In this document: positions 3,542-60,849 of the stretch, in pieces
How positions within the stretch are numbered: the stretch's first letter is position 1
Layout: each line of letters opens with the position of its first letter
NCBI GenBank assembly: GCA_040387855.1
Contig: JAZKCY010000001.1
Coordinates: 381,857-445,856, forward strand
Length of the DNA stretch: 64,000 nucleotides
Direction: 5' to 3'
Origin: Patescibacteria group bacterium
GTDB taxonomy: Bacteria > Patescibacteriota > Minisyncoccia > Phycocordibacterales > JAKAEA01
Program-made: the position numbers and the translations under genes
The notes under the pieces: generated by a model
Databases searched by the model: none
Seen by the model: the letters and a program-made list of their open reading frames with translations, nothing else
What the model was told of the DNA's origin: nothing

Positions 3542-3608
3542 ATGCCCTGTACTTTAGCACTAATAGTTAAAATATAAAAAAAGTCGAATCTTGCCTCAAG
3601 CAAGTCGA

Positions 3609-3893
3609 CTAGGTTCCTCCGGGATCAGGGCCTCCACCACGCGCGTTCCACGTGGAGAGGGTATTGCCCCGGTCGTCTGCGAACTTGTGGGCGGCGTCGA
3701 ACACCTTTTGGGTCGTGTCGCCACCCACCTCGTGGAGGAAGGTGTACCTATCTGCCGGCGGAGTATCATCGCTGAATTCGTCGGGATACTCCGTGTGATC
3801 GTAGAAGGCCGTCATGGACCTTCCATCACTGCAGGCGTAAATCCGACCGCGATTGTAGAGTTCACGATCAAGCATCTCAGGTCGCGTATTCAT
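3609..3893 (-). CDS. Hypothetical acidic protein encoded in a ~60% GC islet
   Basis: 94-aa ORF. Its third codon positions are strongly GC-biased, unlike its neighbours. The opposite-strand ORF (3591..3950) is Arg/Gly-rich and reads as antisense. No recognisable domain. Confidence 0.4.
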   Translation of the reverse strand: MNTRPEMLDRELYNRGRIYACSDGRSMTAFYDHTEYPDEFSDDTPPADRYTFLHEVGGDTTQKVFDAAHKFADDRGNTLSTWNARGGGPDPGGT

Positions 3894-3986
3894 AAGACGC
3901 TCCCATGCGGCGAGGTTTGGTTGGGGTCTGAGATTATAATGCGCTACTGACTATAAAAGTCAACCACTATTTGCTAAGATAGGAAT

Positions 3987-4298
3987 ATGTCAAAGATAGA
4001 AATTTCTAGTGGTACAGCTCATCCATTACCAGACGATTTGCGAAAGGCTTTAGGCTCATCTCCGAAGGCTCTTGTATCCTGGGAGGATATTACTCCATTG
4101 GCCCGTAATGAATGGATTTGCTGGACTATATCTGTGAAGACTCAGGAAACAAGGGATGATCATGTAAAAAGAACTGTTGAAGAACTTATAGAAGGCAAGC
4201 GTCGACCTTGTTGTTGGATAGGCTGCATCCACCGCAAAGATAAAGCCATGAGTGCTTCTCAAAAATTTATACTTACTAAAAAAGCGAAAAAGAAATAA
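3987..4298 (+). CDS. YdeI/OmpD-associated (bacteriocin-protection-like) family protein
   Basis: 103 aa. The C-terminal CCWIGCIHRKDK motif and the size fit the YdeI-type domain. Confidence 0.45.
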   Translation: MSKIEISSGTAHPLPDDLRKALGSSPKALVSWEDITPLARNEWICWTISVKTQETRDDHVKRTVEELIEGKRRPCCWIGCIHRKDKAMSASQKFILTKKAKKK

Positions 4299-4305
4299 AT
4301 AAATT

Positions 4306-4677
4306 ATGAAAGAAGCTACAAAACAACACCGGATTTATACAATGACGTTTTCAAGTGTGTATCGTCTTTATATTACTAAAGTAGAAAGAAAAGGACGCAC
4401 CAAAACTGAAGTTGATGAAATAGTACGATGGCTTACGGGATACACACAGAAAAAATTGGATTCACAAATAGAGAAAACGGTAACGTTTGAAACTTTTTTT
4501 GATGAAGCTCCACATATGAATCCATCAAGGTCTCTCATTACAGGTAAAATTTGTGGAGTACAGATAGAAGAAATCAAAGAGCCTCTTATGCGAGAAATTC
4601 GATACCTCGATAAACTTATAGATGAATTGGCAAAAGGGAAGGCGATGGAGAAAATTTTGCGAAAAGTGCAAAATTAA
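4306..4677 (+). CDS. DUF2200 family protein
   Basis: 123 aa. Overall resemblance to DUF2200 ([38 protein letters not shown]). Confidence 0.55.
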
Positions 4678-5102
4678 ATTCTTGTAATAAGTGCATCTAC
4701 CTGTTTCTTCACTGCTTGAAATGTAGATTCAGATTCTAAAACGACAATAGTTTTATCTTTATTAATATCAGTATCAATTACATTCCATATTTCATGCTTG
4801 GGAATTTTTGCATGTAACGTTTGTTCACAGTATGTGGCGTGAGTTGGTTCCATAAATATTACGAGATCACTATCCTCGATCAGCTCTTTGGTAGTTTGGG
4901 TCCAATCTTTATTTGTATACTCAAGTATATTGTGATTCTGCAATGTATCTTTGGTATCCCAAGCTATCGCTCCTTCTATATTATTTACCGCATCAATGCC
5001 GCTTGATGTTGCTACCCAGTCTTTTATTTTGAGCGAGTTAAAATACGCCTCAGCCATTCTACTCCTAAATGTGTTGTTTGTGCATACAAAGTGAATTTTC
5101 AT
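4674..5102 (-). CDS. Low-molecular-weight phosphotyrosine phosphatase / ArsC-type arsenate reductase family
   Basis: 142 aa. N-terminal CX5R P-loop (VCTNNTFRS) and a conserved Asp downstream. Confidence 0.7.
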
Positions 5103-5178
5103 ATCTATAAGTATCCCAATAAATCAAATAAAATGCTAGTTGCTCTACATTAGTGGAAGTGAATGCTATACTTTTTCT

Positions 5179-5745
5179 ATGGGAAAAATAATCGCTGGAA
5201 TGTCCATGTCTGTGGACGGATATATTAATAATAAGGATGGCGGGGTAGGAGAGCTCTATACAGATTTTAAAGAAATGCATGATGTACCATCTTTTAAAGA
5301 AACCATAGCTACAACCGGTGCTGTTATTATGGGAAAGCACACATATGAAATGGCAGATCCGTTTGAGTGGGCTACTAGTGATTATGAATTCCAAACTCCT
5401 ATTTTTGTTTTGGTTCATACTGTTCCTGAAAAATATCCGCAAGGAAATGGCAAATTGAGCTTTATCTTTGTAACAGATGGAATTGAGAGCGCAGTTTCTC
5501 AGGCGAAAAAAACAGCAGGGGATAAAGATGTGCAGGTAATTGGTGCAAACACTATTCAGCAGCTTTTAAATGCTGGGCTTTGTGATGAATTGGTTGTAGA
5601 TATGATGCCTGTATTGCTTGGAAAAGGAATACGACTATTTGAAAATATAAATACAGATAAAATAAAGCTTGAAAGAGTTAAGGTGCTTGAGACAACTTCT
5701 CAAAGAACGAGTATTACGTTTAAAGTCGTGAAAACTAATAAATAA
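5179..5745 (+). CDS. Dihydrofolate reductase-like (RibD C-terminal domain family) protein
   Basis: MGKIIAGMSMSVDGYI... is the typical N-terminus of the RibD_C/YwjB family. I chose the ATG at 5179 rather than the TTG at 5140 used by the ORF track. Confidence 0.65.
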   Translation: MGKIIAGMSMSVDGYINNKDGGVGELYTDFKEMHDVPSFKETIATTGAVIMGKHTYEMADPFEWATSDYEFQTPIFVLVHTVPEKYPQGNGKLSFIFVTDGIESAVSQAKKTAGDKDVQVIGANTIQQLLNAGLCDELVVDMMPVLLGKGIRLFENINTDKIKLERVKVLETTSQRTSITFKVVKTNK

Positions 5746-5749
5746 AAAA

Positions 5750-5778
5750 GACGTCCTCAAGGGGGAACCTTGGGACGT
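5750..5778. terminator. Hairpin gacgtcc-N15-ggacgtc between convergent genes (bidirectional terminator candidate)
   Basis: 7-bp perfect inverted repeat. It starts 5 nt after the 5745 stop and lies 16 nt before the end of the minus-strand gene at 5794. It marks the boundary between 37% GC and ~60% GC sequence. Confidence 0.5.
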
Positions 5779-5793
5779 CTATGGACTGTTCTC

Positions 5794-6273
5794 TTAGTTT
5801 GCCGGGGTGGCGAGCTTGGCGGACAGTTCGTCCAAGCTCCTCTTGAGGTACCAGGCCTGGAACTCGATCTGCTTCATCATCTCGAGCCGGAGCTGGCTGA
5901 TCACCGCTTCGAGGGTGACCGTGTCCTCCTTGTTCGCTGGCTCGTTGGCGTTCTTGGCCATGAGCCGGCGCGCGACGGTGCGGAGCGTCGCGCACTTCTC
6001 CAGGCGGTCCCGGTTGAAGATGATCGAGAGTCCCTCGTCGGCGCTCAGGTTGGGGAACCTCTCCACGTCCTTGAGCAGGACGCCGACCGTCCGGCTCTCG
6101 TTCTCCGACTGCTTGAGCAGGTCGGTGTTGCCGGCGGCTCGCTCCTTGAGGAACTGCGCCTTGAGTTCCTGGAGGTTGGCCTGCTCTGCCGGCTTGGTGG
6201 TGGCGTCGGCGGCCATGAGCTGGCTCGGCATGAACGCGAGCAGGATCCCGAAGAGGGCGATGGATCGCAGCAT
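5794..6273 (-). CDS. Secreted coiled-coil hypothetical protein encoded in a ~60% GC islet
   Basis: Begins MLRSIALFGILLAFMPSQLMAADA (Sec signal with AxA site), preceded by GGAAGGAAG as the SD. High-GC codon usage. Both strands in 5735..6372 have long open frames, as expected for GC-rich DNA. I picked this frame for its signal peptide and protein-like composition. Confidence 0.45.
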   Translation of the reverse strand: MLRSIALFGILLAFMPSQLMAADATTKPAEQANLQELKAQFLKERAAGNTDLLKQSENESRTVGVLLKDVERFPNLSADEGLSIIFNRDRLEKCATLRTVARRLMAKNANEPANKEDTVTLEAVISQLRLEMMKQIEFQAWYLKRSLDELSAKLATPAN

Positions 6274-6445
6274 ACGATGCTTCCTTCCGTAATGAACTAA
6301 AACGAGTAAGGTGGCCGAAGTAGCAACCTTTAACTCCTTGCACTGTATACTACACATCTTACACTCTGTCAATAAAATGATGAGAGTTACTTTTATTAAT
6401 ACATAGTACTATATTCTTTTTATATAGGATGCTGACTAATATAAA

Positions 6446-6628
6446 TTATTGATCTTTATTTTCTTTCTTAAAGAATATTGTGATAAATGAAGGTAACATA
6501 ATTACTACACAAGTTATGTAAAGCCACGTATCTTCACGACCGTTTATCCACCAGATTATTCCAAGGAAAATAAGTGCTCCGATAAGTAATAGAGCTGCAA
6601 TAGCATGCACTTTAGATCTTGTTTTCAT
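6446..6628 (-). CDS. Small membrane protein (2 TM), hypothetical
   Basis: 60 aa with two hydrophobic helices. Confidence 0.4.
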   Translation of the reverse strand: MKTRSKVHAIAALLLIGALIFLGIIWWINGREDTWLYITCVVIMLPSFITIFFKKENKDQ

Positions 6629-6633
6629 ATATT

Positions 6634-7062
6634 TTATTTACTTGGAGTAAATTCAATTAACCATTCAATACCGTATTTATCTCGAAACATTCCGGCATAT
6701 GATCCCCAAGGACTATCACCCATAGGTCCTTCAACAGTGCCACCAACTGAAAGGCCATTAAATATTTTTTCTGCTTCTTCCTTAGTGTCAGTAGTAATTA
6801 AAATTTTACTTCGATTTTCGTTTTCATTTACAGCGCCCATAAATGAAGGCACATCGTTTGCTATCAAAACACTGCCATTACCAATGGGGAGAGCAATATA
6901 CATTACCTTCTCTGCTTCGGCTTCTGGCATTTGTACTTCTGCAGTTGCAATATCTTTAAAACGAACAATCTTTGAAAACTCACCACCGAATACTGATTTA
7001 TAAAATGTAAGCGCTTCTTCAGCGTTGCCGTTGAAGTTAATCCAAGGGTTTATTGTTGCCAT
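6634..7062 (-). CDS. PhnB-like / VOC family protein (paralog of 2619..3035)
   Basis: MATINPWINFNGNAEEALTFYKSVFGG...DKYGIEWLI. Clearly homologous to the 2619..3035 product. Confidence 0.7.
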   Translation of the reverse strand: MATINPWINFNGNAEEALTFYKSVFGGEFSKIVRFKDIATAEVQMPEAEAEKVMYIALPIGNGSVLIANDVPSFMGAVNENENRSKILITTDTKEEAEKIFNGLSVGGTVEGPMGDSPWGSYAGMFRDKYGIEWLIEFTPSK

Positions 7063-8289: not shown

Positions 8290-8294
8290 CGATG

Positions 8295-12336: not shown

Positions 12337-13896
12337 TTAAAACTCTCTTAAGATAGAAATCTTTGCTCCTATAGAATTGAGTCTGGTAACAATATCTTCA
12401 TACCCTCTATTGATCGAGTAAATGTTTCGGAGGATAGAAGTACCAGGAGCTGCTAGCATTCCAATCAAGAGAATTGCAGCTGGGCGGAGCGCTGGAGGGC
12501 AAATTACTTCTGCAGGCTTTAGCTTTGTAGGACCAGTGATATAGAGTCGGTGTGGGTCTACAAGATTTGTATTTGCTCCGAGTTTATCTATGTCTTTTGT
12601 ATAAATAGCACGTTTTTCATATGGCCAGTCGTGAAGAAGAGTAGTTCCTTTGGCTTGTGAGGCAATGATTGCAAAGAAGGGAAGATTGTCCATGTTGAGT
12701 CCTGGAAACGGACGGCATTCAATTTTTTCTTCAAGAGCAGTAAGCTTTGATGGTGATGTTTTAATATCTACTAAATTAGTATAGCCGTTGAGAGCTTTGT
12801 ATTTTTTTGAAAGCTTGTACTTGAATCCCATCTTCTCCAATTTGAGAAGTTCTAATTCTAGAAAATCTATTGGGGCTCGTTTAATAGTGAGAGAAGAGTT
12901 TGTAACGATAGCAGTAGCTAGGAAAAACATTGCGTCGATAGGATCTTCTGAAAGGTAGTAGGTAACAGGTTTGTCGATCTTTTCGATACCATGAATGGTA
13001 AGAGTTGTTGTTCCAATTCCTTCGATCTTAACGCCACAGGCTTCTAAGAAGTAACACACTTCCTGCACCATGTAATTTGCAGATGCAAATTTAATAACAG
13101 ATGTACCAGGAATAAGTGCAGCGGCAATAACAGCATTTTCAGTTACGGTATCTCCAGATTCATAGAGCACCATTTCAACAGGCTTAAGCACAGGTGCTTT
13201 TACAAGATAATGATTTTCTTTTGCTTCGATTTCAACTCCATAATTTTCTAAAGCATAGAGATGTGGTTTTACTGTACGTGAACCAAGCTTACATCCTCCA
13301 GGCTGAGGGAGATTAAACTTCTTAAATTGGTGAATAAGTGAACCAATGAGCATCACAATAGAACGAGTCTTTTCAGCTGCCACTTTATCCATGTTCTTAA
13401 GATCAATCTTTTCTGGTGGTTTGATTTCAAGATCGTTTCCATTCCATTTAATAGATACTCCAATAGACTCAAATACTTCTATCATACGCTGCACTTCTTC
13501 GATCTTAGGAACGTTCTTAAGAGTGGTTTTGTTTTTATTTAAAAGGGAAGCGGCAAGGATACCCATGGCTCCGTTCTTTGAAGTCTTTGTAATAATTTCA
13601 CCTGAAAGCTTGTGACCTCCTTCAATTTTTACGTTCAATGCACCCTTAGATACATGGACGATATCACGATTGAGCGCATCGCTAATCTTAGCCAACATTT
13701 CGGTAGATAGGTTTTGTTCACCTCGTTCGATGCGCGCGATAGCACTTTGAGTAGTCCCTAATTTTTGAGCAAATTCATGTTGGGTAATAGACCGTTCTTG
13801 TCGCAATGCAGAAATAAGTTTTCCAATTTGTAAAAGGTTCTTATCAGCAGATGTGGGTTCGGTAGCTACTGTCTGATTTTGGGTTTCTTCAGCCAT
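12337..13896 (-). CDS. murA: Fusion protein: N-terminal XRE-family HTH domain plus UDP-N-acetylglucosamine 1-carboxyvinyltransferase (MurA)
   Basis: Start MAEETQNQ at 13896. Residues ~25-85 form an HTH_3 (LRQERSITQHEFAQKLGTTQSAIARIERGEQNLSTEMLAKISDAL). The rest is a full-length MurA including the active-site PGGCKLG Cys. The ORF track's 584-aa version includes upstream read-through. Confidence 0.8.
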   Translation of the reverse strand: MAEETQNQTVATEPTSADKNLLQIGKLISALRQERSITQHEFAQKLGTTQSAIARIERGEQNLSTEMLAKISDALNRDIVHVSKGALNVKIEGGHKLSGEIITKTSKNGAMGILAASLLNKNKTTLKNVPKIEEVQRMIEVFESIGVSIKWNGNDLEIKPPEKIDLKNMDKVAAEKTRSIVMLIGSLIHQFKKFNLPQPGGCKLGSRTVKPHLYALENYGVEIEAKENHYLVKAPVLKPVEMVLYESGDTVTENAVIAAALIPGTSVIKFASANYMVQEVCYFLEACGVKIEGIGTTTLTIHGIEKIDKPVTYYLSEDPIDAMFFLATAIVTNSSLTIKRAPIDFLELELLKLEKMGFKYKLSKKYKALNGYTNLVDIKTSPSKLTALEEKIECRPFPGLNMDNLPFFAIIASQAKGTTLLHDWPYEKRAIYTKDIDKLGANTNLVDPHRLYITGPTKLKPAEVICPPALRPAAILLIGMLAAPGTSILRNIYSINRGYEDIVTRLNSIGAKISILREF

Positions 13897-13926
13897 GAAT
13901 TTGTGGTTAGTTCTAATGCTCAACAT

Positions 13927-13944
13927 TATAGCATATATGCTATA
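13927..13944. promoter_or_regulatory. 18-bp perfect palindrome TATAGCATATATGCTATA overlapping a TATAAT -10 box upstream of HTH-murA (candidate operator)
   Basis: Perfect dyad seen directly, 30 nt upstream of the murA start. On the coding strand it reads ttgcgc-N16-tataat, with the palindrome spanning the spacer and the -10. Confidence 0.5.
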
Positions 13945-13990
13945 TGGCGCAAATATACCGATTTCCATAACTATAGTATTCTGTATACAT

Positions 13991-29938: not shown

Positions 29939-29979
29939 TATTTTTTGATTATTGCACTATGTTTGGACTAGGAGCAAAA

Positions 29980-39641: not shown

Positions 39642-39709
39642 AATACTGTTATTTTAGGCTTTATAATTAGTTTTGACCCAACAGGAATTTTCCTGTACTA
39701 TTCAACTAC

Positions 39710-52857: not shown

Positions 52858-52929
52858 GGCCTCATCGTCTAACGGTTAGGACAGAAGCTTCTCAAGCTTT
52901 AAATCGGGGTTCGATTCCCCGTGAGGTCA
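52858..52929 (+). tRNA. tRNA-Glu (anticodon CUC)
   Basis: Hand fold. Acceptor GGCCUCA/UGAGGUC with one G-U pair. Anticodon stem GAAGC/GCUUU. Loop UUCUCAA. T arm CGGGG-UUCGAUU-CCCCG. Discriminator A. Confidence 0.75.
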
Positions 52930-52976
52930 CATTTACTCTCAAAATCACATCAGTATGGGTGTGCTATACTTCACCC

Positions 52977-54209
52977 ATGCCTGATAAGTCTCCTACAGAA
53001 AAACAGCGAGAAATGAGAGATAAGATAGTCGGAGATCAAAAGCGCCTAGGTGCTGTTGAGCAAACGACCCTTGTTAATTCCATCGAGGAAGAGTCATTCG
53101 ATCGTCTCACACGCCTTGCTTCAAAGCTATTAAAGACTCCTGTCTCATTTGTTACGCTTCTCGAAAAAGATCGTGATTTTGTGAAGAGTCATTATGGTCT
53201 GCCTCAGCCTATTTCAGAAAGCCGAGAAATTACTGCTCATCCTTCTTTTTGCCAACATATAATCACTCATCGTGAGCCTCTTATTATTGAAGATGCTCGT
53301 ACTTCTGAAATATTTAAAGATTTTCCATCTGTTAAACACATGGGTGTTGTGGCATATGCGGGAATGCCACTTATCACTCCTGAAGGGTATGCACTAGGTA
53401 CATGCTGTGTTCTTGATTTCAAAAAACGAAGTTGGACCGATGATGAAATTGAAATTCTCTCCGAGCTCACTAAATCAGTTTTAACTGAAATAGAATTGCG
53501 TAAACTTACTGTGAAACTTGAGAAAGAGACCGCTACAAAAGATGAATTCATTTCTATTGCTGCTCATGAGTTGAAGACACCTTTAACCAGTCTTAAAATG
53601 TTTTCTCAACTTTTACATAAAAAGATGATTATGGAGAAAGAAGAGCGTTTTATACCTGAGGTCAAAAAAATTGATGGGCAAGTCACAAAGATTCATAGTC
53701 TCATTTCACAGCTTTTTGATACAAGCTCAATGCAGAGAAGCAACATTTCCCTGCAAAAAAATGATGTAATTATTAATGAACTTATTGAAAAGACCGTAGA
53801 AGAATTTGTTGGCGATACATCAGAAGGGAAGCCCCCAATTATATTCACTACACAAGCTCTCTTTACCGTTTGCGTTGATCAAGATCGAATTACTCAGGTA
53901 GTAAGAAATTTACTTTCAAACGCGTTTAAGTATGCGCCGCATTCACAAAAAATTGATATTACTATTGAAGAAATAGATTCTCGTATAAAAGTATCTGTAA
54001 AAGATTATGGTCCAGGTATTTCAGAAGTTGAATCAAAAAAGATTTTTGATCGATTTTATCAAGTAAAAAATCCTAATGATCATGTGCCTGTCGGATTAGG
54101 ACTTGGATTGTATATTTGTGCAACGATTATTCAGGCGCATGGTGGTGTACTTGGTGTGGAAAGTGAGTTGGGTAAAGGTTCTACCTTTTATTTTACACTG
54201 CCAAAATAG
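52977..54209 (+). CDS. Cytoplasmic sensor histidine kinase with N-terminal GAF domain (orphan, no response regulator nearby)
   Basis: GAF-like region, HisKA H-box (AAHELKTPLTSL) and HATPase_c G-boxes (GLGLGLYIC...GKGSTFYFTLP). No TM. Start could be the GTG at 52959. Confidence 0.75.
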   Translation: MPDKSPTEKQREMRDKIVGDQKRLGAVEQTTLVNSIEEESFDRLTRLASKLLKTPVSFVTLLEKDRDFVKSHYGLPQPISESREITAHPSFCQHIITHREPLIIEDARTSEIFKDFPSVKHMGVVAYAGMPLITPEGYALGTCCVLDFKKRSWTDDEIEILSELTKSVLTEIELRKLTVKLEKETATKDEFISIAAHELKTPLTSLKMFSQLLHKKMIMEKEERFIPEVKKIDGQVTKIHSLISQLFDTSSMQRSNISLQKNDVIINELIEKTVEEFVGDTSEGKPPIIFTTQALFTVCVDQDRITQVVRNLLSNAFKYAPHSQKIDITIEEIDSRIKVSVKDYGPGISEVESKKIFDRFYQVKNPNDHVPVGLGLGLYICATIIQAHGGVLGVESELGKGSTFYFTLPK

Positions 54210-54326
54210 TTTGTTGAAGTTTGATTTTATTCTTCTATTTAGATACTCTAGCCTACAGAGTCGAGCAATCGACAAAGCTTTTGTACGCAGCTTGAAGCGT
54301 ACCGTTTGACAAGGAAAGGAAACGAC

Positions 54327-55010
54327 ATGTTTCCACAGAGAATTCGTGACCAACGGGGGTGGATCAAGGTGTATGAGGAACAGGGGGCCTACTGGCGACA
54401 CAATGGCCATGCCACTGCTCCTCATGCACTCCTCACAAAGGGAGATCACTCTGACGGTTTCTTTTTGAGCAGACTTGTCACGGATGACGATACGTTGCTG
54501 GGTGAAGCGTCCTCAGATCTGATGGACGCTTCGCGTGAGATTCTTGATCTGTGGAAGGTTAAGCGGATCGTAGGGCCTCAAACCGGCGCGACCAAACTCG
54601 CCCAAGCAGTCGCTGGGAAGATGCTGTTGGTCACCGGCAACAGCGTCGGTTGGGCTTCGCCAAAGAAGCCTGATGATGGCAAAGGCCCGATGACCTTCGA
54701 CGATCCTGCCAACATGGTCATGCCGGGGGAGATCGTCCTTCTCTGCGAGGACGTGGTGACCACTGGCGGTAGCGTGAAGCAGGCTGCCGATGCTGTCACG
54801 GCTGCAGGTGGGATCGTCCTGCCGTTTGTCCTTTCCCTCGTGAATCGTGGAGGACTTGAAGTTGCCCACGGTCGGAAGGTGATCGCGCTCATCAATCAGC
54901 CGATGAAGACTTGGTCACCGGCCGACTGCCCGTTGTGCCCGCGTTCCGAGGCGATCAGTCCCAAGCGCCCGGATGGCAATTGGCTTCGTCTCACCAAACA
55001 TGCTGCCTGA
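54327..55010 (+). CDS. Type I phosphoribosyltransferase (orotate PRTase-like) encoded in a ~60% GC islet
   Basis: PRPP-binding motif IVLLCEDVVTTGGSV. Overall orotate-PRTase-like order. AAGGAAAGGA is the SD. GC-rich third codon positions. Confidence 0.6.
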   Translation: MFPQRIRDQRGWIKVYEEQGAYWRHNGHATAPHALLTKGDHSDGFFLSRLVTDDDTLLGEASSDLMDASREILDLWKVKRIVGPQTGATKLAQAVAGKMLLVTGNSVGWASPKKPDDGKGPMTFDDPANMVMPGEIVLLCEDVVTTGGSVKQAADAVTAAGGIVLPFVLSLVNRGGLEVAHGRKVIALINQPMKTWSPADCPLCPRSEAISPKRPDGNWLRLTKHAA

Positions 55011-55056
55011 CAACAGGTGGTTTTTTTATTATCTAAATAGAAGCTATACTATCCTT

Positions 55057-55587
55057 ATGAATTACATCTATCACTGGGTGCCAGAAGATATGCAAGGAGA
55101 TACACTTTATCCATTAAATATACTAAAAGATCTCCATCCAGATTTGTATGCAACAGAAGCTTTAAAATATACAGGACGTGAACGAGTAATGCAGCAACAA
55201 ATTCCAATACTCAATTGTTTATGGAATGATGTTATTCATTTTTCTCCCATTCATCCATGGATAATTAAACAAGCACTTATTGATGCAGGAAGAACAAAAT
55301 CATTTACAACAAGTTTTTTTGAAATTGATCCACACCTTTTAACTCCAGAAAATACTATTGTCTATTTACATAAACACACGGACAAAACACATAAAATGAC
55401 TGAAGAGAACTTTGCCAAATTTGATCCAGATAATGTTGGTCAGTATGCAGAGCTTCCTCAAGTTACAAAAGACTACTATAAAGAAATGTATGGAAAAGGG
55501 GAGCGACCACTATTATTTGTAGGAGTACCGCATATTTTATATAAAGGTTCTATTAATACTAATGAAATAAAAAGAATCAGCTTGTAA
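55057..55587 (+). CDS. Hypothetical protein (host-like low GC) between two GC-rich islets
   Basis: 176-aa ORF. No domain recognised. Confidence 0.4.
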   Translation: MNYIYHWVPEDMQGDTLYPLNILKDLHPDLYATEALKYTGRERVMQQQIPILNCLWNDVIHFSPIHPWIIKQALIDAGRTKSFTTSFFEIDPHLLTPENTIVYLHKHTDKTHKMTEENFAKFDPDNVGQYAELPQVTKDYYKEMYGKGERPLLFVGVPHILYKGSINTNEIKRISL

Positions 55588-55591
55588 TGTT

Positions 55592-55619
55592 TTGACAGTA
55601 AAGGTAGATATGGTATAAA
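55592..55619 (+). promoter_or_regulatory. Near-consensus sigma70-type promoter TTGACA-N16-TATAAA (extended TGg) driving the GC-rich ORF at 55643
   Basis: ttgaca at 55592-55597 and tggtataaa at 55611-55619. Followed by AAAGGAG-N7-ATG. Confidence 0.5.
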
Positions 55620-55642
55620 GCAGGCTGAAAGGAGAACCTTCC

Positions 55643-56035
55643 ATGGCTAAAAAGCCTGCTGCTCGCGTTCGTCGTGGAGTAGACTTCGTCGAACAAATGA
55701 GGGTGTTACTCGCTAATGCAAAGTTCGAGGCTGGAAACGTCTACCATCGAACGGCTGTCGATGTCCTCGTGCTCATAGACGATGCTCGACAGCCGCGAAG
55801 CGAAGACCCATTACCCATTGTTAGGGTAAAGTGCAATGCACGATCCAGGAGGATCGCTGATTGGCTCGGGCTCGAGGTTGCACTTTTTTCAGTTGAGCAA
55901 AAAGCTGTCGTTGCCACAGGGACACTCAACATCGATGGTGAAGTGTGTTTTCGGAACACTAAGCCAGGTGCATATGAGCTTCGACCGTGGTCTGTTGAGC
56001 AAAATACATCCGTCCCCCCAGAGGTTAATTCTTAG
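55643..56035 (+). CDS. Hypothetical protein encoded in a ~55-58% GC islet
   Basis: 130 aa. Strong SD. High-GC codon usage. No recognisable domain. Confidence 0.45.
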   Translation: MAKKPAARVRRGVDFVEQMRVLLANAKFEAGNVYHRTAVDVLVLIDDARQPRSEDPLPIVRVKCNARSRRIADWLGLEVALFSVEQKAVVATGTLNIDGEVCFRNTKPGAYELRPWSVEQNTSVPPEVNS

Positions 56036-56152
56036 GGTGGCGGTTTTTTTATTGACATCCTACTCAACGATACGATACACTTATTTATAAGTATGAAAAC
56101 ATACGCACAACATTTTGGTTTTGCCGTCCGACCCGTCTTTATTCCTATCCAT

Positions 56153-56236
56153 GGGAGATGTTTTGCTGTATATAAAAACTAATTTTGTTTTAAATATAAT
56201 TTTTAGAAACATCTCCCGCAAGGAGATGTTTTTGTT
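56153..56236 (+). promoter_or_regulatory. Three copies of the GGAGATGTTTT element arranged as mutually exclusive hairpins (A ... A' loop A + T-run): attenuator-like leader or terminator
   Basis: gggagatgtttt at 56153-64. Its complement aaacatctccc is at 56206-16. ggagatgttttt at 56222-33 is followed by gttt. The A'-A pairing makes a 10-bp stem with a cgcaa loop and a U-tract. Confidence 0.45.
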
Positions 56237-56337
56237 TGGAATATGTGCGGTACTTGAGGTAATGCATATGTTCCAGACTGGATGTTTGGAGTTTGCAACG
56301 TAGCAAGCTTGTTCTTTCAATCAGATTGGAGTACGTC

Positions 56338-56811
56338 ATGAGTCTTGTTCATGTTGAGGCTACCCGTGGCAGTGTCGCACTCACGATCTCGGCCGTCGCC
56401 GGTACTCGAGCCTGTGCTGTGCTCGATCGTTTGGCTGAGCCTCACAACGGCACAAAAACCATCTCGGTCTTTCCCGAACCATGGGTCGACAATCGTCGGC
56501 ATGGTCTCGTGACCTTGGTGAAAGGGATCGATGTGAAGATCCCACTCACACTTGTGCGGGTGAATCGATCAGAGGATGCTGAGGGTGTGCTCATGGTCGA
56601 TGCCATGGGTGTCGATGTGACATTATTCTCAATGCCGTACCGAGTGGATGAAGGACGAGGGTTGTGTCTCATGTCCATCGGTGCTCATGTCGTCGACGGA
56701 CAGATCGACAAGATCGCTCGCAATGTTCTGGCCATTCTTGCTGCATGCACAAGCTTTGCTAAGGATGCTCAGGGTCGAATGTATTTTGATCCACATCTGA
56801 AGCTCAGCTAG
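56338..56811 (+). CDS. Hypothetical protein encoded in a ~60% GC islet
   Basis: 157 aa from ATG 56338. High-GC codon usage. No confident domain. Confidence 0.45.
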   Translation: MSLVHVEATRGSVALTISAVAGTRACAVLDRLAEPHNGTKTISVFPEPWVDNRRHGLVTLVKGIDVKIPLTLVRVNRSEDAEGVLMVDAMGVDVTLFSMPYRVDEGRGLCLMSIGAHVVDGQIDKIARNVLAILAACTSFAKDAQGRMYFDPHLKLS

Positions 56812-56822
56812 GTGCAAGTATT

Positions 56823-56850
56823 CTGGAAGCGTATCGCTTCCAGTTTTTTA
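56823..56850. terminator. Rho-independent terminator ctggaagcg-tat-cgcttccag + TTTTTT (bidirectional, between convergent genes)
   Basis: 9-bp GC-rich stem followed by a U-tract. The minus-strand gene ends at 56848. Confidence 0.7.
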
Positions 56851-57447
56851 TTTGGGAAAATATCTTTGCTCGGCAAATGTTAATTCTGCTTCAGACAATT
56901 CTTTTTTGCTTGCAAATGCCCATAGCTCAAAATCTTGTATTCGTCTTTTCCCAATTACAGATTTAAAGCCAACTGATTTCAAAGAATATAAAAGTACAGG
57001 AAGCGTAAAACCTGTTTTATGTGTCATATATGTTTTACCTTCTGCTATTGCTTTGCGAAAACCATAGAGCATATCTAAAGGGGTGACTGGACCCTCAGGG
57101 GACATATATATTTCTTCAAGTAATTTACCCTCAGCCACTAAAGATGCAATAGCTTGAAGATCTGGGCATGCGATAAGCACAAATCCATCAGAGTTAAGAA
57201 CACGAATAAATTCATCAAATGCTTTGTGAACCTCTTGTGGATAGAGATGTTCTACGGTATGAGATGTAAACACAGCATCAAAAGATTCTGTGGCTATTTG
57301 TGGCATATTGGTTATATCACCAACAACATCTGGTTTTAGTTCGGGATCAAGATCTAATCGTGTTTCTTTCCATTCATCAGGTTCAAATGATACAGGGATT
57401 TCTCGGTAGGTCTTTTCACCACTACCTGCATGTAAAAGTGATTTCAT
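56848..57447 (-). CDS. Class I SAM-dependent methyltransferase (Methyltransf_11-like)
   Basis: Typical motif spacing (DVVGDITNMP, FDAVFTSHTVEHL, LNSDGFVLIACPD). Confidence 0.6.
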   Translation of the reverse strand: MKSLLHAGSGEKTYREIPVSFEPDEWKETRLDLDPELKPDVVGDITNMPQIATESFDAVFTSHTVEHLYPQEVHKAFDEFIRVLNSDGFVLIACPDLQAIASLVAEGKLLEEIYMSPEGPVTPLDMLYGFRKAIAEGKTYMTHKTGFTLPVLLYSLKSVGFKSVIGKRRIQDFELWAFASKKELSEAELTFAEQRYFPK

Positions 57448-57467
57448 AGATGCCAGTAATACAGTGA

Positions 57468-58295
57468 TTAATACACTCGCTCAATATTATCTAAATGTTC
57501 TTGATACGTTCGTGCTGTATGGATCTTTCCATTGTCATCATGCAAATAGAAAAATGCATCTGTTTTTCCAGGATTTAATGCTGCTTCAATTGCAGCTTCA
57601 CCAGGATTTGAAATTGCTGATGGGGGAAGTCCTTTGTTTTTGTACGTATTAAATGGTGATTCGATGTATTTGTCAGCAGGGACTACTTTTGGCCACCACT
57701 TAGTCTTACTACCTTTTGCATATTGAAGTGTGGCATCCATATCGAGTGACATTCCTTCAAAGAGTCGATTCCAGATCACACCTGAAATAATCTTCATGTC
57801 ACTTTTACTTCCTGCTTCTCGTTGAATGATAGAAGCTATTTTAATTGCAGTGTCCATATTAATGACATTTGTTTTAAGCTTTTCATTGCTCTCAACTACT
57901 TCTTCATTAAATGCAGTTATGATCTTTTTACTTACATCAGGTGCTTTTGCACGAAGGGGGACTACATAATTGCCAGGGAAAAAATATCCTTCAGTTGCAC
58001 CTTTGGTTGCTTCAGAATGAATGGCGAGTAACTTTCGCTTTTCAGTTTCAGACCATCCAAGAGTTTTACCAAATCGTTCAATAACTTCTTCTTTGCGCAT
58101 ACCTTCAGTGATTCGTACATTACGTAAATATGGATTAGCAATATTTTGATACATCTCAACTGCTGTGAGACCAAAATAAGATTTCATCTTAAAAAAATAT
58201 CCACCAAAAATAATACCAATAGAAAGAAACGATATGCCCACTACGAGAAGGCCCGACTTCTTTTTTGATGACTTCTTTTTCTTGAGTTTTTTCAC
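57468..58295 (-). CDS. mltG: Endolytic murein transglycosylase MltG (YceG-like)
   Basis: Lys-rich N-terminus plus TM. YceG domain motifs (GYFFPGNY, GLPPSAISNPGEAAIEAALNP). Confidence 0.8.
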   Translation of the reverse strand: MKKLKKKKSSKKKSGLLVVGISFLSIGIIFGGYFFKMKSYFGLTAVEMYQNIANPYLRNVRITEGMRKEEVIERFGKTLGWSETEKRKLLAIHSEATKGATEGYFFPGNYVVPLRAKAPDVSKKIITAFNEEVVESNEKLKTNVINMDTAIKIASIIQREAGSKSDMKIISGVIWNRLFEGMSLDMDATLQYAKGSKTKWWPKVVPADKYIESPFNTYKNKGLPPSAISNPGEAAIEAALNPGKTDAFFYLHDDNGKIHTARTYQEHLDNIERVY

Positions 58296-58404
58296 TTTGT
58301 TATTATATCCTGGATAGTCAGACTACTCAATGAATATTTCATGAAATATTTCCATTTTTCGTACGACTATAGTAGTGTAATACTTCTATTCTATATATAA
58401 ATAT

Positions 58405-59973
58405 ATGAAAAAAGCGACATTATCTATTTTAGCTCTAGCAACTATTCTCTTTGGAATAACCATTATAGAAGTACATGCTCAAACAGCGGACGCAACAGTT
58501 ACAGTGACTACACCCGGACCAATTCAACCAGGGCAGTATATAGATGTGTCATGGAGTCTTTCTGAAGAAGATCACAGATCAAGAGATTGGATAGGTCTTT
58601 ATAAATCAGGTGCAACAAACTCATCATATTTAAATTGGAAGTATGCTGAGGATCCACAAGGCTCAGCTTCTCTATATGTACCTCGAGAATCAGGTACCTA
58701 TGAAATCCGGTATATGTCACGTAATGGATTTACGAGTATTGCCAAAAGTTCTAGCTTTACTGTAGGGACGGGAACTGATGGTGGAAATAATAACGGAGGC
58801 AATAATGGCAATGCAACAACAACATCTGGGTATTCTTTAACATTGTCATCTACAAATATTCAATCTGGACAACCGCTTCAAGTATCATGGAAAACTCCCG
58901 ACGATGTTTCTATTTCAAGAGATTGGATTGCTGTGTTTAAAAGTAATTCACAAAATAATAATTATCTCGATTGGGCATATACTTCAGGTAATCGAGAGGG
59001 AACACTGAATCTCTACCCACCAAAAGAAGCTGGATCATATGAGGTTCGATATTTAAAAAAGAATGGGTACACCAGTGTGGCTGAAGTAGCGTTCACTATT
59101 ACTGTTGTAGGAACGAATCCGGATAATGGCAATGGAACTACTACTCCAAATCCCAATCCTGGAACAAATAGTTATAGTGTAACTGCATCTCCGTCTGGAA
59201 ATATATCACCGGGTGCTACTGTCACAATTAGTTGGACAGCACCTCAGGACACAAAGATCTCAAGAGATTGGGTGGGGATTTTTGGTGTTGGTACATCAAA
59301 CCGACAATACTATGAATGGAGTTATACAAATGGAAGAACAGGATCGGTAACACTTAAAGCACCTACAACTGAAGGGGATTATGAAGTAAGATATTTAAAA
59401 AATAATGGATATACAAGTGTTGCAAAGAGTGCTCCATTTAAAATACAACTCGGTAGTATCCCAAATAATAAAAAGATTATAGCTTTTGGTGATAGCTTAA
59501 CTGCTGGTTTTGGAGCTACTGAAGGGAATGATTATGTATCTGTGCTGTCTCGAAGAATTAATCAGCCTATAGAAAATGCTGGAGTCATAGGTGATACAAC
59601 TGCTGAGGCGCTTACTCGCTTGGAAACAAGTGTTTTAAGTAAAAATCCTGATGTTGTCATAATTCTTTTGGGAGGTAATGATGTAATTCAGCGTGTGCCT
59701 CGATCTGAAACATTTGAAAATATTAAAACCATAATAGAAAGAATTAAAGCACGAGGTGCCGATGTTGTTTTAGTGGGAATTCATCAGACTATCTACAATT
59801 CAAATTACAGATCAATAGCCAATCAAACAGATTCGTATTTTGTTCCTGAAGTATTGAGTGGGATTTTAGGACGTAATGATTTAACCGCAGATCTTATTCA
59901 TCCAAATGATGCAGGGTATGTGATAGTCGCTCAGAGAATTGATCCTGTAGTGCGAGTTGCTTTAGCACAATAA
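58405..59973 (+). CDS. Secreted SGNH/GDSL hydrolase with three tandem ~100-aa N-terminal repeat domains
   Basis: Signal peptide. Three copies of (ISRDWIxxFK...YLxWxY...GxYEVRYLKxNGYTSVA). The C-terminus has GDSL (AFGDSLTAG), GGNDV and DLIHPNDAGY motifs. Confidence 0.7.
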   Translation: MKKATLSILALATILFGITIIEVHAQTADATVTVTTPGPIQPGQYIDVSWSLSEEDHRSRDWIGLYKSGATNSSYLNWKYAEDPQGSASLYVPRESGTYEIRYMSRNGFTSIAKSSSFTVGTGTDGGNNNGGNNGNATTTSGYSLTLSSTNIQSGQPLQVSWKTPDDVSISRDWIAVFKSNSQNNNYLDWAYTSGNREGTLNLYPPKEAGSYEVRYLKKNGYTSVAEVAFTITVVGTNPDNGNGTTTPNPNPGTNSYSVTASPSGNISPGATVTISWTAPQDTKISRDWVGIFGVGTSNRQYYEWSYTNGRTGSVTLKAPTTEGDYEVRYLKNNGYTSVAKSAPFKIQLGSIPNNKKIIAFGDSLTAGFGATEGNDYVSVLSRRINQPIENAGVIGDTTAEALTRLETSVLSKNPDVVIILLGGNDVIQRVPRSETFENIKTIIERIKARGADVVLVGIHQTIYNSNYRSIANQTDSYFVPEVLSGILGRNDLTADLIHPNDAGYVIVAQRIDPVVRVALAQ

Positions 59974-59999
59974 ATACTTATTAAAAATAGAAACAATAC

Positions 60000-60040
60000 A
60001 CCCCCAGTCGCCTCTACGACTGGGGGTGGGTTTGGTGTTT
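60000..60040. terminator. GC-rich hairpin cccccagtcg-cctcta-cgactggggg between convergent genes
   Basis: 10-bp perfect stem. T-rich on the minus-strand side. The minus-strand gene ends at 60077. Confidence 0.55.
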
Positions 60041-60076
60041 CGAAACAAAGAGCTGTGAGTTACTGTTGGTATGTCG

Positions 60077-60694
60077 CTACTTCGCGATATCAGCCGCGTG
60101 GGTTTTGAAGTTCACAATGTAGGAGAAGGCTTGCACCTTCCTACCTGAGTTCTTCACAGCCGTGAACGTACCCATTTCTGGGTTGCTCAAGACCTTGGGG
60201 AAGATCTTGATCCGCTTGCCCGGAGCAAGTTCGATCGGTTTCCCATCTTGAAGCCCTTTGAGCGTGACGCTGAACGAGAACGTGTTCTCGACTTCAGCAT
60301 ACGACTCACGGGCTGTCATCATGGGATCGACGTAGAGCTTGTTCTTGGGACGGTCGGCGTTCCTCGGCGGCAGTTCCGGTGTTGCCGGTGCTGTTGTCGG
60401 GGTAGCCACCTTCGCGGGCTGCTGACCAGATTGACCTGTGAGGATCCCGTTTAGGCTGATCAGCTTAGGCGGGGTGAGCTTCACGATGGTCGGCTGGGCT
60501 GGCTTTGCCGCCCGCCTGGTCGATGGCTGGGTTTGCGCGGTCGGCTTGGTTGTCGGTCCCATGGTGCTTTCACCACGCGGACCAAACCAATGAGCCGGCA
60601 GTGGCCAACCTAGATCCTTGAGGTGGTTGATCCCTGCGACACAAGCTCCGAACAGTACGATTCCAACAGCTAACGGAATGGACATCTTAATCAT
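60077..60694 (-). CDS. Membrane-anchored Pro/Thr-rich hypothetical protein encoded in a ~58% GC islet
   Basis: Start MIKMSIPLAVGIVLFGA (a TM helix), preceded by GAGGA as the SD. A P/T/A-rich linker is followed by a ~90-aa C-terminal domain. High-GC codon usage. Confidence 0.45.
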   Translation of the reverse strand: MIKMSIPLAVGIVLFGACVAGINHLKDLGWPLPAHWFGPRGESTMGPTTKPTAQTQPSTRRAAKPAQPTIVKLTPPKLISLNGILTGQSGQQPAKVATPTTAPATPELPPRNADRPKNKLYVDPMMTARESYAEVENTFSFSVTLKGLQDGKPIELAPGKRIKIFPKVLSNPEMGTFTAVKNSGRKVQAFSYIVNFKTHAADIAK

Positions 60695-60849
60695 CGAATT
60701 CCTCGGTAGGACCACAACAAATGGTCTCAGTTTCTCTTGCTGTATTATATCACACTATTATGCATATTGTCAATATATAAAAAGAGGGTAATAATCATGT
60801 GTAATAGCCGTCATTAAAGCCGTAGAATTAGCAGTTAACTATAAAATAT

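Follow-up and report, generated by a model that had tools for sequence, protein, structure and literature searches.

The window analysed here, a 64-kb stretch (GC 0.385) of a low-GC Patescibacteria chromosome, harbors six segments of 340-680 bp with 52-63% GC, embedded in a 38% GC background (Table 1). Their edges were located by maximum-likelihood two-change-point fits (flanks 0.32-0.39 GC; 2*deltaLL 39-119) and fall within ~10-100 bp of those proposed in a preliminary description, which confirms six sharply bounded GC islets. The 54 host ORFs have a GC content of 0.378 +/- 0.025 and a third-position GC (GC3) of 0.254 +/- 0.041 (maximum 0.369), and the islet genes lie 5-15 sd above them in GC3. 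The strongly G/C-biased third positions reported earlier are observed in four islet genes, while those of islets 4 and 5 are only moderately biased (GC3 0.46 and 0.54). Each islet carries one credible gene rather than exactly one ORF: the strand first assigned to islet 1 was wrong, and islet 2 has overlapping ORFs. No further segment of this type is present elsewhere in the window. The other GC peaks correspond to two tRNAs and an RCC1-repeat gene, plus a 330-bp bump at 39338-39665.

Table 1. Features of the six islets. Segments are those of the change-point fit; promoter scores are consensus matches.
Islet	Feature	Position	Strand	Description
1	Segment	3593-3930		GC 0.59
1	Gene	3609-3893	-	94-aa acidic protein; GC 0.58, GC3 0.66
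1	Promoter-like site	3934-3963	-	TTGACT ... TATAAT, spacing non-optimal
1	Intrinsic terminator	3575-3610	-	Stem-loop + U7; -12.9 kcal/mol, z = -3.9
2	Segment	5752-6290		GC 0.63
2	Gene	5794-6273	-	159 aa; signal peptide, then helical mature part; GC3 0.86, computed on the longer 192-aa ORF 5794-6372
2	Promoter	6344-6372	-	TTGACA-17-TATACA, 10/12
2	Intrinsic terminator	5744-5780	-	-20.2 kcal/mol, z = -6.2
3	Segment	54345-55021		GC 0.58
3	Gene	54327-55010	+	227-aa PyrE-like phosphoribosyltransferase; GC3 0.63
3	Terminator	55002-55028	+	8-bp stem + U7
4	Segment	55620-56044		GC 0.52
4	Gene	55643-56035	+	130-aa protein; GC 0.51, GC3 0.46
4	Promoter	55592-55619	+	TTGACA-16-TATAAA, 11/12
4	Terminator	56010-56050	+	Stem-loop + U7; -15 kcal/mol
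5	Segment	56358-56776		GC 0.55
5	Gene	56338-56811	+	157-aa alpha/beta protein; GC3 0.54
5	Promoter	56052-56081	+	TTGACA-18-TACACT, 10/12; L074 counterpart TTGACA-16-TAGAAT
5	Leader	56088-56337	+	~250 nt, AT-rich (GC 0.36), structured
5	Leader segment 1	56153-56163	+	GGGAGATGTTT
5	Leader segment 2	56207-56217	+	AAACATCTCCC
5	Leader segment 3	56222-56237	+	GGAGATGTTT + T-run
5	Leader hairpins	56238-56274, 56289-56310	+	Followed by SD
5	Terminator	56823-56849	+	-14 kcal/mol, z = -5.1
6	Segment	60000-60676		GC 0.57
6	Gene	60077-60694	-	205 aa; GC3 0.67
6	Promoter	60744-60773	-	TTGACA-18-TATAAT + extended TG, 12/12
6	Terminator	59999-60028	-	13-bp GC-rich stem; -27.2 kcal/mol, z = -5.1

A stem-loop followed by a U-run closes all six genes, with folds at -9.8 to -27.2 kcal/mol, and most of them also have an SD and a sigma-70 promoter close to consensus. 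The whole 64 kb contains four promoters scoring at least 11/12, two of which are located immediately 5' of islet genes. Hairpin terminators had been placed at the GC boundaries in general; they are found at the 3' edge of each unit, whereas the 5' edge is a promoter or leader.

The earlier product assignments hold: the islets encode a PRTase, a helical protein that is secreted, a Pro-rich protein anchored in the membrane and three unknowns. Direct reading of the sequence shows that the islet 1 terminator overlaps the stop codon, and the SD of this gene, GGGAG, lies 6 nt ahead of the ATG. A 119-aa ORF on the plus strand of islet 1 was rejected as a shadow, since promoter, SD and terminator are all on the minus strand. 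Four long ORFs overlap in islet 2, and only the one starting with a signal peptide (MLRSIALFGILLAFMPSQLMA) is credible; its promoter is followed by a 5' UTR of ~65 nt and the SD GGAAGGAAG. In the islet 6 protein, a single N-terminal TM helix is joined by a linker rich in Pro, Thr and Ala to a C-terminal domain of ~85 aa. The proteins from islets 2 and 6 (MES2436793.1, V4519_02175, and MES2436846.1, V4519_02450, in the NCBI annotation) are orphans that hit only themselves among 5.8 billion proteins, and a viral search gave no relative of the latter. The proteins from islets 1 and 4 match no family in Pfam, PHROG, NCBIfam or PADLOC; no relative was retrieved by plasmid, phage and viral searches for islet 1, or by plasmid and viral searches for islet 4. 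The single-sequence AF2 model of the islet 4 protein is unusable (pLDDT = 38).

Since this is metagenome-derived MAG sequence, high-GC fragments of other organisms might have been mis-joined into a low-GC contig through chimeric assembly or contamination. However, Logan contig SRR26324620_329415 is 100% identical to the 981,549-bp NCBI contig over 11,099 bp that span islets 3-6, with islets 1 and 2 outside of the retrieved contig. This independent assembly agrees across eight junctions, establishing the contiguity of islets 3-6 with their flanks, and a chimera is therefore unlikely. Moreover, every insert corresponds to one intact ORF with promoter/SD on one side and terminator on the other, twelve exact chimeric joins would be implausible, and similar islets occur in many unrelated MAGs of other studies. 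Taken together, the probability of mis-joining is practically negligible.

The islets occupy two accessory zones on either side of a block of core genes. This block, from 8 to 53 kb, includes def, fmt, PriA, MurA, MreB, RRF, TatC, aaRS, PBPs, MraW and a Mur ligase, and contains no islet. The islets are surrounded by small accessory genes, those for DUF1801, two PhnB-like proteins, DinB, YdeI, DUF2200, LMW-PTP and RibD_C, and those for HK, a methyltransferase, a GDSL lipase, KGG and pilins. The pilin genes adjoin islet 6, and secretion ATPase and platform genes are localized just outside the window. We found no close relative of this genome, the best YceG match being 41% identical.

Genes with their own promoter and terminator and a GC content unlike that of their neighbours correspond to the published definition of morons, the HK97/HK022-type independent transcription units described by Cumby, Davidson & Maxwell 2012 (PMC3594210). 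Like morons, the islets are single genes with intrinsic terminators inserted between unrelated genes, and the GC deviation is read in both cases as horizontal spread. Unlike morons, they lie outside any phage or prophage, next to housekeeping and accessory genes of the chromosome; their GC exceeds that of the recipient, and several are found within a few kb of one another. No phage genes surround them, their sole PHROG match is a weak hit of the PRTase, and no relatives of the islets tested were present in IMG/VR or INPHARED. Integron gene cassettes are likewise small, mostly single-ORF, foreign in composition, often ORFans and ended by an imperfect hairpin. In contrast, the islet hairpins are ordinary terminators with U-runs, every islet has its own promoter, and the units are dispersed rather than arrayed. 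The ~50 window ORFs scanned include no integrase or transposase, and neither target duplications nor flanking direct repeats beyond chance were detected. The six islets have no sequence in common, and no end motif, end repeat or attC-like core element is shared among them. They are thus very unlikely to represent morons of a prophage, cassettes of an integron or cassettes mobilised site-specifically in some other way.

The islet 3 protein matches PF00156 (26.8 bits) and carries the invariant residues of its own family. It shares the PRTase fold with PyrE, and its best model matches are pyrE, but it scores well short of the equivalog cutoffs (61 against 150 bits for TIGR01367, pyrE_Therm; 41 against 107 for TIGR00336), and HSxGFFxS and a C-terminal CPLC are conserved motifs peculiar to its family. 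Our search yielded 74 homologues, including 67 close ones (E <= 2e-33, 39-53% identity) that are all labelled Patescibacteria or unclassified. The same labels apply to 40 of the 42 genome loci with close PRTases (39-52% identity; flank GC 0.33-0.62). The islet 3 PRTase thus appears to belong to a PyrE-like family confined to Patescibacteria, except that two loci (L038 and L041) carry other MAG labels, Oligoflexia and Gammaproteobacteria. In more than 20 Patescibacteria relatives, pyrF (OMP decarboxylase) directly follows the PRTase gene, whereas the window copy, whose orotate activity is putative, has no pyrF within 64 kb; such a solo gene is expected under single-gene capture. In many loci, PRTase GC3 follows genome composition (L030, 0.26; L008, 0.38; L014, 0.39). 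Outliers, with GC3 minus flank GC > 0.2, comprise the window copy and those of L012, L015, L016, L023, L028 and L041. The tree is star-like, and these outliers fall on long branches scattered across it. The family is thus not GC-rich by nature, and its genes have apparently been transferred repeatedly. Because the best homologue is only 53% identical, a recent transfer would need an unsampled donor lineage.

An actinobacterial host had been suggested, speculatively, as the donor, genes passing from a high-GC host to its episymbiotic CPR bacterium. The islet GC (0.52-0.63) and the islet 2 GC3 (0.86) would suit an Actinomycetota donor, two of the products are secreted or membrane-anchored and could act at a cell-cell interface, and the four ORFans are compatible with any donor. 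However, no islet searched gave an actinobacterial homologue. The PRTase relatives are Patescibacteria or unclassified apart from the Oligoflexia and Gammaproteobacteria MAG contigs, those of islet 5 are found in contigs of 27-40% GC, and the 5.8 billion proteins searched yielded no relative of islets 2 and 6 despite the dense sampling of Actinomycetota. To our knowledge, only Saccharibacteria among CPR groups live on Actinomycetota, and nothing in the window ties this Patescibacterium to them. Transfer from such a host is thus highly improbable. One common high-GC donor is not supported either, given the spread of GC3 (0.46-0.86) and the lack of shared sequence or end motifs, and an actinobacterial host finds still less support. 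Best homologues lying all in low-GC relatives were initially regarded as evidence against import; this pattern is seen in part for the two islets with homologues, and islets 2 and 6 have none.

The islet 5 leader aligns with that of a homologous unit in an unrelated contig, L074 (nhmmer E = 3.8e-19). Nucleotide identity is 65% in the leader and 49% in the CDS, against a shuffle baseline of 48%. The leader folds have z = -4.9 and -6.6, and 16 of the 46 consensus pairs display compensatory changes, among only three sequences. Three leader segments are predicted to pair alternatively (1:2 or 2:3) into antiterminator/terminator-like folds, as in riboswitches and protein- or tRNA-mediated attenuators, with a U-run after the 2:3 hairpin and, 3' of it, another two conserved hairpins and then the SD. 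In contrast to known attenuator leaders, it matches no Rfam family, has no conserved leader peptide and is represented by three examples only. The homologous unit shares this promoter and leader, which thus came together with the gene, and the conserved, structured leader travels with it. The view that some islets use host-style promoters is accordingly doubtful for islet 5. A plain donor-to-recipient model does not lead one to expect what is seen for this family: its CDS is saturated, yet each copy with DNA (3 of 3) is a GC-rich islet within low-GC surroundings.

The cassettes might instead have resided for long in low-GC Patescibacteria, or circulate among them as a pool, with a coding GC kept high either by selection or because a dedicated mobile reservoir feeds a rapid turnover, and not be recent imports from a high-GC cell. 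The islet 5 family, with just five remote relatives in 1.84 billion representatives, points in this direction. All three copies with DNA are GC-rich (GC 0.51-0.55, GC3 0.53-0.59) beside low-GC neighbours (GC3 0.23-0.36; 0.43 for gyrB, 3' in L076), and their CDS is no more similar than shuffled sequence, unlike the AT-rich leader. PRTase GC also exceeds flank GC in 41 of the 42 close loci, and other CPR loci of low GC repeatedly carry short GC-rich ORFans that match no Pfam family. On the other hand, PRTase GC3 equals that of the host in roughly half of the loci and falls to 0.26, so that there is no family-wide constraint, and the whole-gene GC excess partly stems from amino-acid composition (GC1/GC2). 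The sample is small and biased (n = 3 for islet 5; PRTase-centred loci), no mechanism is known, and no mobile-element genes are nearby in the window. We consider such maintained GC-richness rather unlikely.

We favor, with a probability of roughly 65%, the reading that the six islets are independent, horizontally acquired, self-contained single-gene units that do not come from one donor. The repeated acquisition of single genes proposed at the outset is the best reading, as each islet holds a single, apparently expressible, compositionally foreign gene. A typical unit would combine a promoter and an SD with a single ORF and its intrinsic terminator. DNA might enter via the pilus/competence uptake route typical of these bacteria and insert into intergenic sites by illegitimate recombination; the units would then be retained because their own promoter and terminator allow expression without disturbing the neighbours. 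The PRTase and islet 5 units, the two with relatives, draw on the gene pool of Patescibacteria, whose loci examined here span ~33-62% GC, or of low-GC ultra-small bacteria, the other four genes being ORFans. Different donors and/or different degrees of amelioration could account for the GC3 differences.

Individually transferred genes are common in 125 aquifer Patescibacteria genomes, with 83% of transfers from other Patescibacteria and pili/ComEC invoked as the DNA-uptake route (mSystems 2025, PMC12455944). Our PRTase and islet 5 results fit such frequent, mostly intra-phylum single-gene HGT. That study needed an identified donor MAG, whereas no donor is at hand for four of our six genes, which are ORFans, and it described neither promoter-plus-terminator cassettes nor a systematic GC-rich bias. 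In 20 low-GC Patescibacteria loci, we counted 28 ORFs more than 0.10 above the locus median GC and 4 below it by that margin; the corresponding numbers in 18 mid/high-GC loci are 14 and 13. This direction of the outliers is as expected if genes are acquired from a pool whose GC is intermediate. Acquired genes are reportedly AT-richer than their recipient in most cases, and the islet genes, being GC-richer, deviate in the opposite direction.

Six GC-rich islets, each holding one credible gene, were delineated in the window by sliding-window GC and maximum-likelihood change-point fits, which reproduced to about 10-100 bp the coordinates of a preliminary description of this DNA. Islet GC is 0.52-0.63, as compared with 0.32-0.39 in the flanks (2*deltaLL 39-119) and 38.5% over the whole 64 kb. 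The 54 host ORFs used as a reference have a GC of 0.378 +/- 0.025 and a GC3 of 0.254 +/- 0.041, with a highest GC3 of 0.369. The islet genes, which represent 6 of the 64 window ORFs, exceed this GC3 by 5-15 sd. The strongly G/C third positions previously attributed to all of them are found in islets 1, 2, 3 and 6, whereas islets 4 and 5 reach only a moderate GC3. Both GC3 and the change points thus give the islet genes the atypical composition of horizontally acquired genes. Structured-RNA genes were ruled out as the identity of the islets: a Rfam scan of the window returned two tRNAs and nothing else above gathering score, so that the islets correspond to no known RNA gene, and all six hold intact ORFs.

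Between islets 3 and 4 lies a low-GC gene of 176 aa that belongs to no family and lacks homologues in the retrieved loci; therefore, the GC-rich units at 54.3-56.8 kb are interleaved with AT-rich DNA and do not form one island. A 330-bp GC bump (0.51) at the 3' end of a 341-aa ORF without Pfam family contains no separate gene. Two minor GC peaks belong to a gene encoding a 1090-aa protein with about 15 RCC1 repeats (PF00415, PF25390) and are not islets; this gene sits among glycosyltransferase, sulfotransferase and methyltransferase genes (28-38.6 kb cluster).

Coordinates of the islets, their signals and other features, in the window unless a locus from another genome (L-number) is named.
Feature	Position (strand)	Promoter	GC3	Content
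Accessory zone	2-7 kb			DUF1801, two PhnB-like, DinB, YdeI, DUF2200, LMW phosphatase, RibD_C
PhnB-like paralogues	2619-3035 (-), 6634-7062 (-)			PF06983/glyoxalase
Islet 1 segment	3593-3930	TTGACT...TATAAT	0.66	gene 3609-3893 (-), 94 aa
Islet 2 segment	5752-6290	TTGACA-17-TATACA	0.86	gene 5794-6273 (-)
Core block	8-53 kb			def, fmt, PriA, MurA, two MreB, RRF, RseP, TatC, two aaRS, MreC, PBPs, GreA, MraW, Mur ligase
HTH_3/MurA-type fusion	12337-14091 (-)
MreB paralogues	14377-15390 (+), 40974-42041 (+)
Large ORF	21622-26688 (+)			1688 aa
RCC1-repeat gene	29902-33174 (+)			GC peaks 31889-32121, 32717-32933
GC bump	39338-39665			ORF 38616-39641
aaRS/DUF2000 fusion	45349-47250 (+)
Accessory zone	53-61 kb			histidine kinase, methyltransferase, YceG, GDSL lipase, KGG, pilins
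Islet 3 segment	54345-55021		0.63	PRTase
Low-GC gene	55057-55587 (+)
Islet 4 segment	55620-56044	TTGACA-16-TATAAA	0.46
Islet 5 promoter + leader	56052-56337 (+); L074 721-1012; L076 about 396-530	TTGACA-18-TACACT		leader 56088-56337; segments 1, 2, 3: 56153-56163, 56207-56217, 56222-56237
Islet 5 segment	56358-56776		0.54
Islet 6 segment	60000-60676	TTGACA-18-TATAAT, extended TG, perfect match	0.67
Pilin, LVIVD-repeat genes	61.3-63.7 kb
PRTase/pyrF pairs (examples)	L010 10645-11481; L016 1650-2393; L032 10591-11400
Small GC-rich ORFans	L023 7315-7734 (-), L028 9746-10060 (-), L030 9450-9848 (+), L033 9329-9574 (-), L041 5003-5437 (-), L032 14190-14621 (-)		0.56-0.84	no Pfam family

A stem-loop followed by a U-run was observed directly 3' of all six islet genes (-9.8 to -27.2 kcal/mol), and most islet ORFs, one of which encodes the phosphoribosyltransferase (PRTase) of islet 3, have an identifiable SD. 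Promoters matching at least 11/12 positions occur four times in the 64 kb (both strands), two of them immediately upstream of islet genes. Inspection of islet 3 revealed an SD but no convincing promoter of its own, and no terminator separates it from the histidine-kinase gene that precedes it. Judged from their sequence, the islets are predicted to be self-contained transcription units with their own promoter and terminator, the promoter of islet 3 excepted. The gene of islet 1 lies on the minus strand, as do its promoter, SD (GGGAG) and terminator; a 119-aa plus-strand ORF was rejected as a shadow on the basis of these signals and of codon-position GC. Islet 2 contains four overlapping long ORFs, of which only the one listed has a signal peptide, SD, promoter, terminator and a GC3 far above GC2; by the same reasoning, the three others are shadows.

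The window comes from an NCBI MAG named 'Patescibacteria group bacterium' (locus tags V4519_, 981,549-bp contig), and chimeric assembly could in principle produce such GC jumps. An independent assembly, of run SRR26324620, provided a Logan contig that matches window 52902-64000 (11,099 bp) with 100% identity and spans every one of the eight junctions that bound islets 3-6. Exact-protein look-ups of genes near islets 1 and 2 matched no independent contig. Islets of like kind are seen in unrelated MAGs, and 12 chimeric joins, each framing one intact ORF between promoter and terminator, are not credible.

The islets are confined to two accessory zones, and the core block between them holds none. 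The zone with islets 1 and 2 is bracketed by two PhnB-like paralogues. Its small genes (DUF1801, DinB, YdeI, DUF2200, LMW-PTP, RibD_C) have a host-like GC and may be older acquisitions. No integrase, transposase or phage gene was found among the approximately 50 window ORFs scanned. Transposon or IS insertion is marked by a target-site duplication (TSD), terminal inverted repeats and a transposase, and no such signature was found; the longest flanking direct repeats (7-9 bp) were equalled in 22-150 of 200 shuffles and are not above chance. Integron cassettes have attC sites of common architecture and form a contiguous array that is associated with an IntI integrase, whereas the islets are dispersed, have their own promoters and lack common ends, and the scanned ORFs include no integrase. 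The ends of the six units show no mutual similarity. The six proteins are likewise mutually unrelated, a weak BLAST match between those of islets 4 and 5 (E = 0.017) being unconfirmed by hhalign.

Among named concepts, the nearest is the phage moron, which is transcribed as an independent unit from a promoter and to a terminator of its own and has a deviant GC (PMC3594210). The islets resemble morons in their GC, unlike that of their neighbours, and in their predicted promoters and terminators (islet 3 without a convincing promoter). Morons, however, sit in a phage or prophage, whereas the islets adjoin histidine kinase, YceG, GDSL lipase, pilin, DinB, PhnB-like and MscL genes. Because this defining location is lacking, the islets are moron-like but are not morons. 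A viral origin was rejected, with no match in five IMG/VR scans for islet proteins or in two for leader DNA motifs, and none for islet 1 in INPHARED (tblastn). PHROG gave a single weak match, to the PRTase, and PADLOC (defence systems) nothing above noise.

We searched for homologues of the islet proteins, those of islets 1 and 4 in family libraries and in plasmid, phage or IMG/VR collections. The PRTase barely passes PF00156 (26.8 vs a cutoff of 26.3 bits). Its best curated models are those for PyrE, yet the equivalog cutoffs are missed by far (TIGR01367, 61 vs 150.25 bits; TIGR00336, 41.1 vs 106.8). This analysis revealed 74 homologues, including 67 close ones (E <= 2e-33, 39-53% identity), and all close homologues with a named source are from Patescibacteria (Paceibacterota, Taylor-, Nomura- and Parcubacteria). 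When each GTDB species was represented by one genome, 42 close PRTase loci were recovered, of which 40 bear a Patescibacteria label or are unclassified, the other two being MAGs labelled Oligoflexia and Gammaproteobacteria (L038, L041). Flank GC over the PRTase loci is 0.33-0.62, and no close match carries an Actinomycetota label. The OMP decarboxylase gene (pyrF, PF00215) lies directly 3' of the PRTase in most of the Patescibacteria relatives (more than 20 loci), which identifies the family as a predicted PyrE-like enzyme belonging to a pyrE-pyrF pair. In some loci the two genes together make up a GC-rich islet. In the window the PRTase stands alone, with no pyrF partner within 64 kb.

In about half of the loci, the PRTase GC3 is at the level of its neighbours (0.26 in L030, 0.38 in L008, 0.39 in L014), whereas it is a strong outlier in scattered ones (0.63 vs 0.28 in L023, 0.67 vs 0.33 in L028, 0.82 vs 0.40 in L041, and also in L016 and the window). 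High GC is therefore not a property of the family. Islet-type copies are dispersed over a star-like tree, and the overall pattern is that expected from repeated transfer inside a phylum whose GC varies widely. Co-transfer of the islets was rejected, the other islet proteins being missing from all 67 PRTase loci.

Islets 2 and 6 matched only themselves among 5.8 billion proteins; being ORFans with a secreted and a membrane-anchored product, respectively, they are candidates for a role at the cell surface or in interaction with a host. Islets 1 and 4 have no family in Pfam, PHROG, NCBIfam or PADLOC, and no relative was found for islet 1 among plasmids, phages and IMG/VR or for islet 4 among plasmids and IMG/VR (plasmids by tblastn for both). 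The 90% cluster of islet 4 comprises this genome alone, its single-sequence structure model has a pLDDT of 38, and the exact sequence of islet 1 is absent from the collection.

Five remote relatives of islet 5 (34-41% identity) emerged when 1.84 billion representatives were scanned exhaustively with HMMER. Two of them have DNA (loci L074 and L076), in low-GC contigs that share no synteny with the window. These homologues have a GC of 0.51-0.55 and a GC3 of 0.53-0.59, among low-GC neighbours with a GC3 of 0.23-0.36; gyrB, downstream in L076, has a GC3 of 0.43. In all three unrelated low-GC genomes for which its DNA is available, the family is a GC-rich gene. The coding sequences of the window and L074 have 49% nucleotide identity and are thus saturated (shuffle baseline 48%), while the promoter and an AT-rich leader of about 250 nt have 65%. 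This conservation against an unrelated contig indicates, at the sequence level, that promoter and leader move together with the gene, and contradicts, for islet 5, the host-style promoters previously proposed for some islets.

The leader is strongly structured (fold z = -4.9 and -6.6). Three of its segments can form alternative antiterminator/terminator helices, pairing either 1:2 or 2:3, the latter a predicted terminator with a U-run; the MFE fold has the 1:2 pairing in the window and the 2:3 terminator in L074. Two further hairpins show compensatory changes, which affect 16 of 46 pairs of the leader consensus, from three sequences only. The best Rfam scores are far under gathering (Phe_leader, 23.6 vs 55; PyrR, 18 vs 54), and the leader is a candidate for a new cis-regulatory RNA.

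The homologues are thus patchily distributed, as expected of horizontal acquisition, with islets 2 and 6 orphan, islet 5 limited to five remote relatives and islet-type PRTases scattered. The best reading, to which we assign a probability of about 0.65, is that the six islets were acquired horizontally on six separate occasions, each as a single-gene unit that was ready for expression and entered an intergenic site in an accessory region. Repeated single-gene acquisition, as put forward in the preliminary description, is supported by the foreign composition, the intact genes with their own signals and the patchy homologues. The reading also draws directly on the contiguity in an independent assembly and on the lack of any recombinase, TSD or attC signature. 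The single high-GC donor suggested for all islets is not borne out, and the GC3 spread of 0.46-0.86 would reflect differing donors and/or ages. An actinobacterial host as donor is disfavoured by the taxonomy of the close PRTase matches, by the absence of homologues for islets 2 and 6 and by the low-GC contigs that carry the islet 5 relatives. Pilin genes near the end of the window, and T2SSE and T2SSF just past it in L001, suggest that the DNA may have entered by pilus- or competence-mediated uptake. Insertion would have occurred by illegitimate recombination, and units carrying their own promoter and terminator would have been retained. The islets exemplify a known process in a clear and well-framed way. 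For the islets with homologues to check, the source pool is that of Patescibacteria themselves, and GC-rich islets in such genomes should not be taken as host-derived before their homologues are checked.

In 20 loci from low-GC Patescibacteria (median ORF GC < 0.45; 408 ORFs), 28 ORFs lie more than 0.10 GC above the locus median and 4 as far below; the figures for 18 mid/high-GC loci are 14 and 13, in a sample biased by the choice of loci via the PRTase. The direction of the outliers fits uptake from an intermediate-GC gene pool. Small ORFans that match no Pfam family are numerous among the GC-rich outliers, and some of them have a lipoprotein-like N-terminus. With its six islet genes, the window ranks with the more mosaic loci (4/29 ORFs in L023, 4/28 in L033). 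A metagenome scan revealed no close relative of the window genome, the best YceG match having 41% identity, and exact-protein look-ups led only to the Logan contig, which is from the same genome. In 125 aquifer Patescibacteria genomes, individually transferred genes are common and 83% of transfers are intra-phylum (PMC12455944). Ultra-small bacteria have genomes of about 1 Mb and depend on partners, and their acquired genes are thus visible adaptation experiments; in the window, about 1 ORF in 10 can be a recent ready-to-express single-gene import.

Foreign DNA is generally AT-richer than its recipient, whereas the window islets are GC-richer, opposite to the usual direction. Low-GC Patescibacteria might share a circulating pool of GC-rich single-gene cassettes, whose GC-richness would be a stable property and not the fading trace of a donor, with islet 5 as the type example and its leader as a new RNA class. 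Such cassettes would be self-contained, a promoter and a terminator enclosing a coding region that is mostly ORFan and is in some cases preceded by a structured AT-rich leader. We consider such a pool unlikely, and retain it because the promoter and leader of islet 5 appear to travel with the gene. Were it real, the leader would define a new attenuator- or riboswitch-like class of cis-regulatory RNA. Were GC-rich cassettes systematic in low-GC Patescibacteria, the rule of AT-rich foreign DNA would be reversed and a distinct mobile gene pool indicated. The direction of the bias across these genomes and the islet 5 leader RNA are thus worth following up.

Other genes were noted in the core block. 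A 1688-aa ORF has no Pfam family at E <= 1e-5. Two unusual fusions were observed, an HTH_3 domain N-terminal to a MurA-type enzyme (EPSP_synthase family) and a DUF2000 domain at the C-terminus of a class II aaRS of the Asp/Lys/Asn type. Finally, two full-length MreB paralogues are encoded, together with MreC and PBP2, inside 30 kb of this genome of about 1 Mb.
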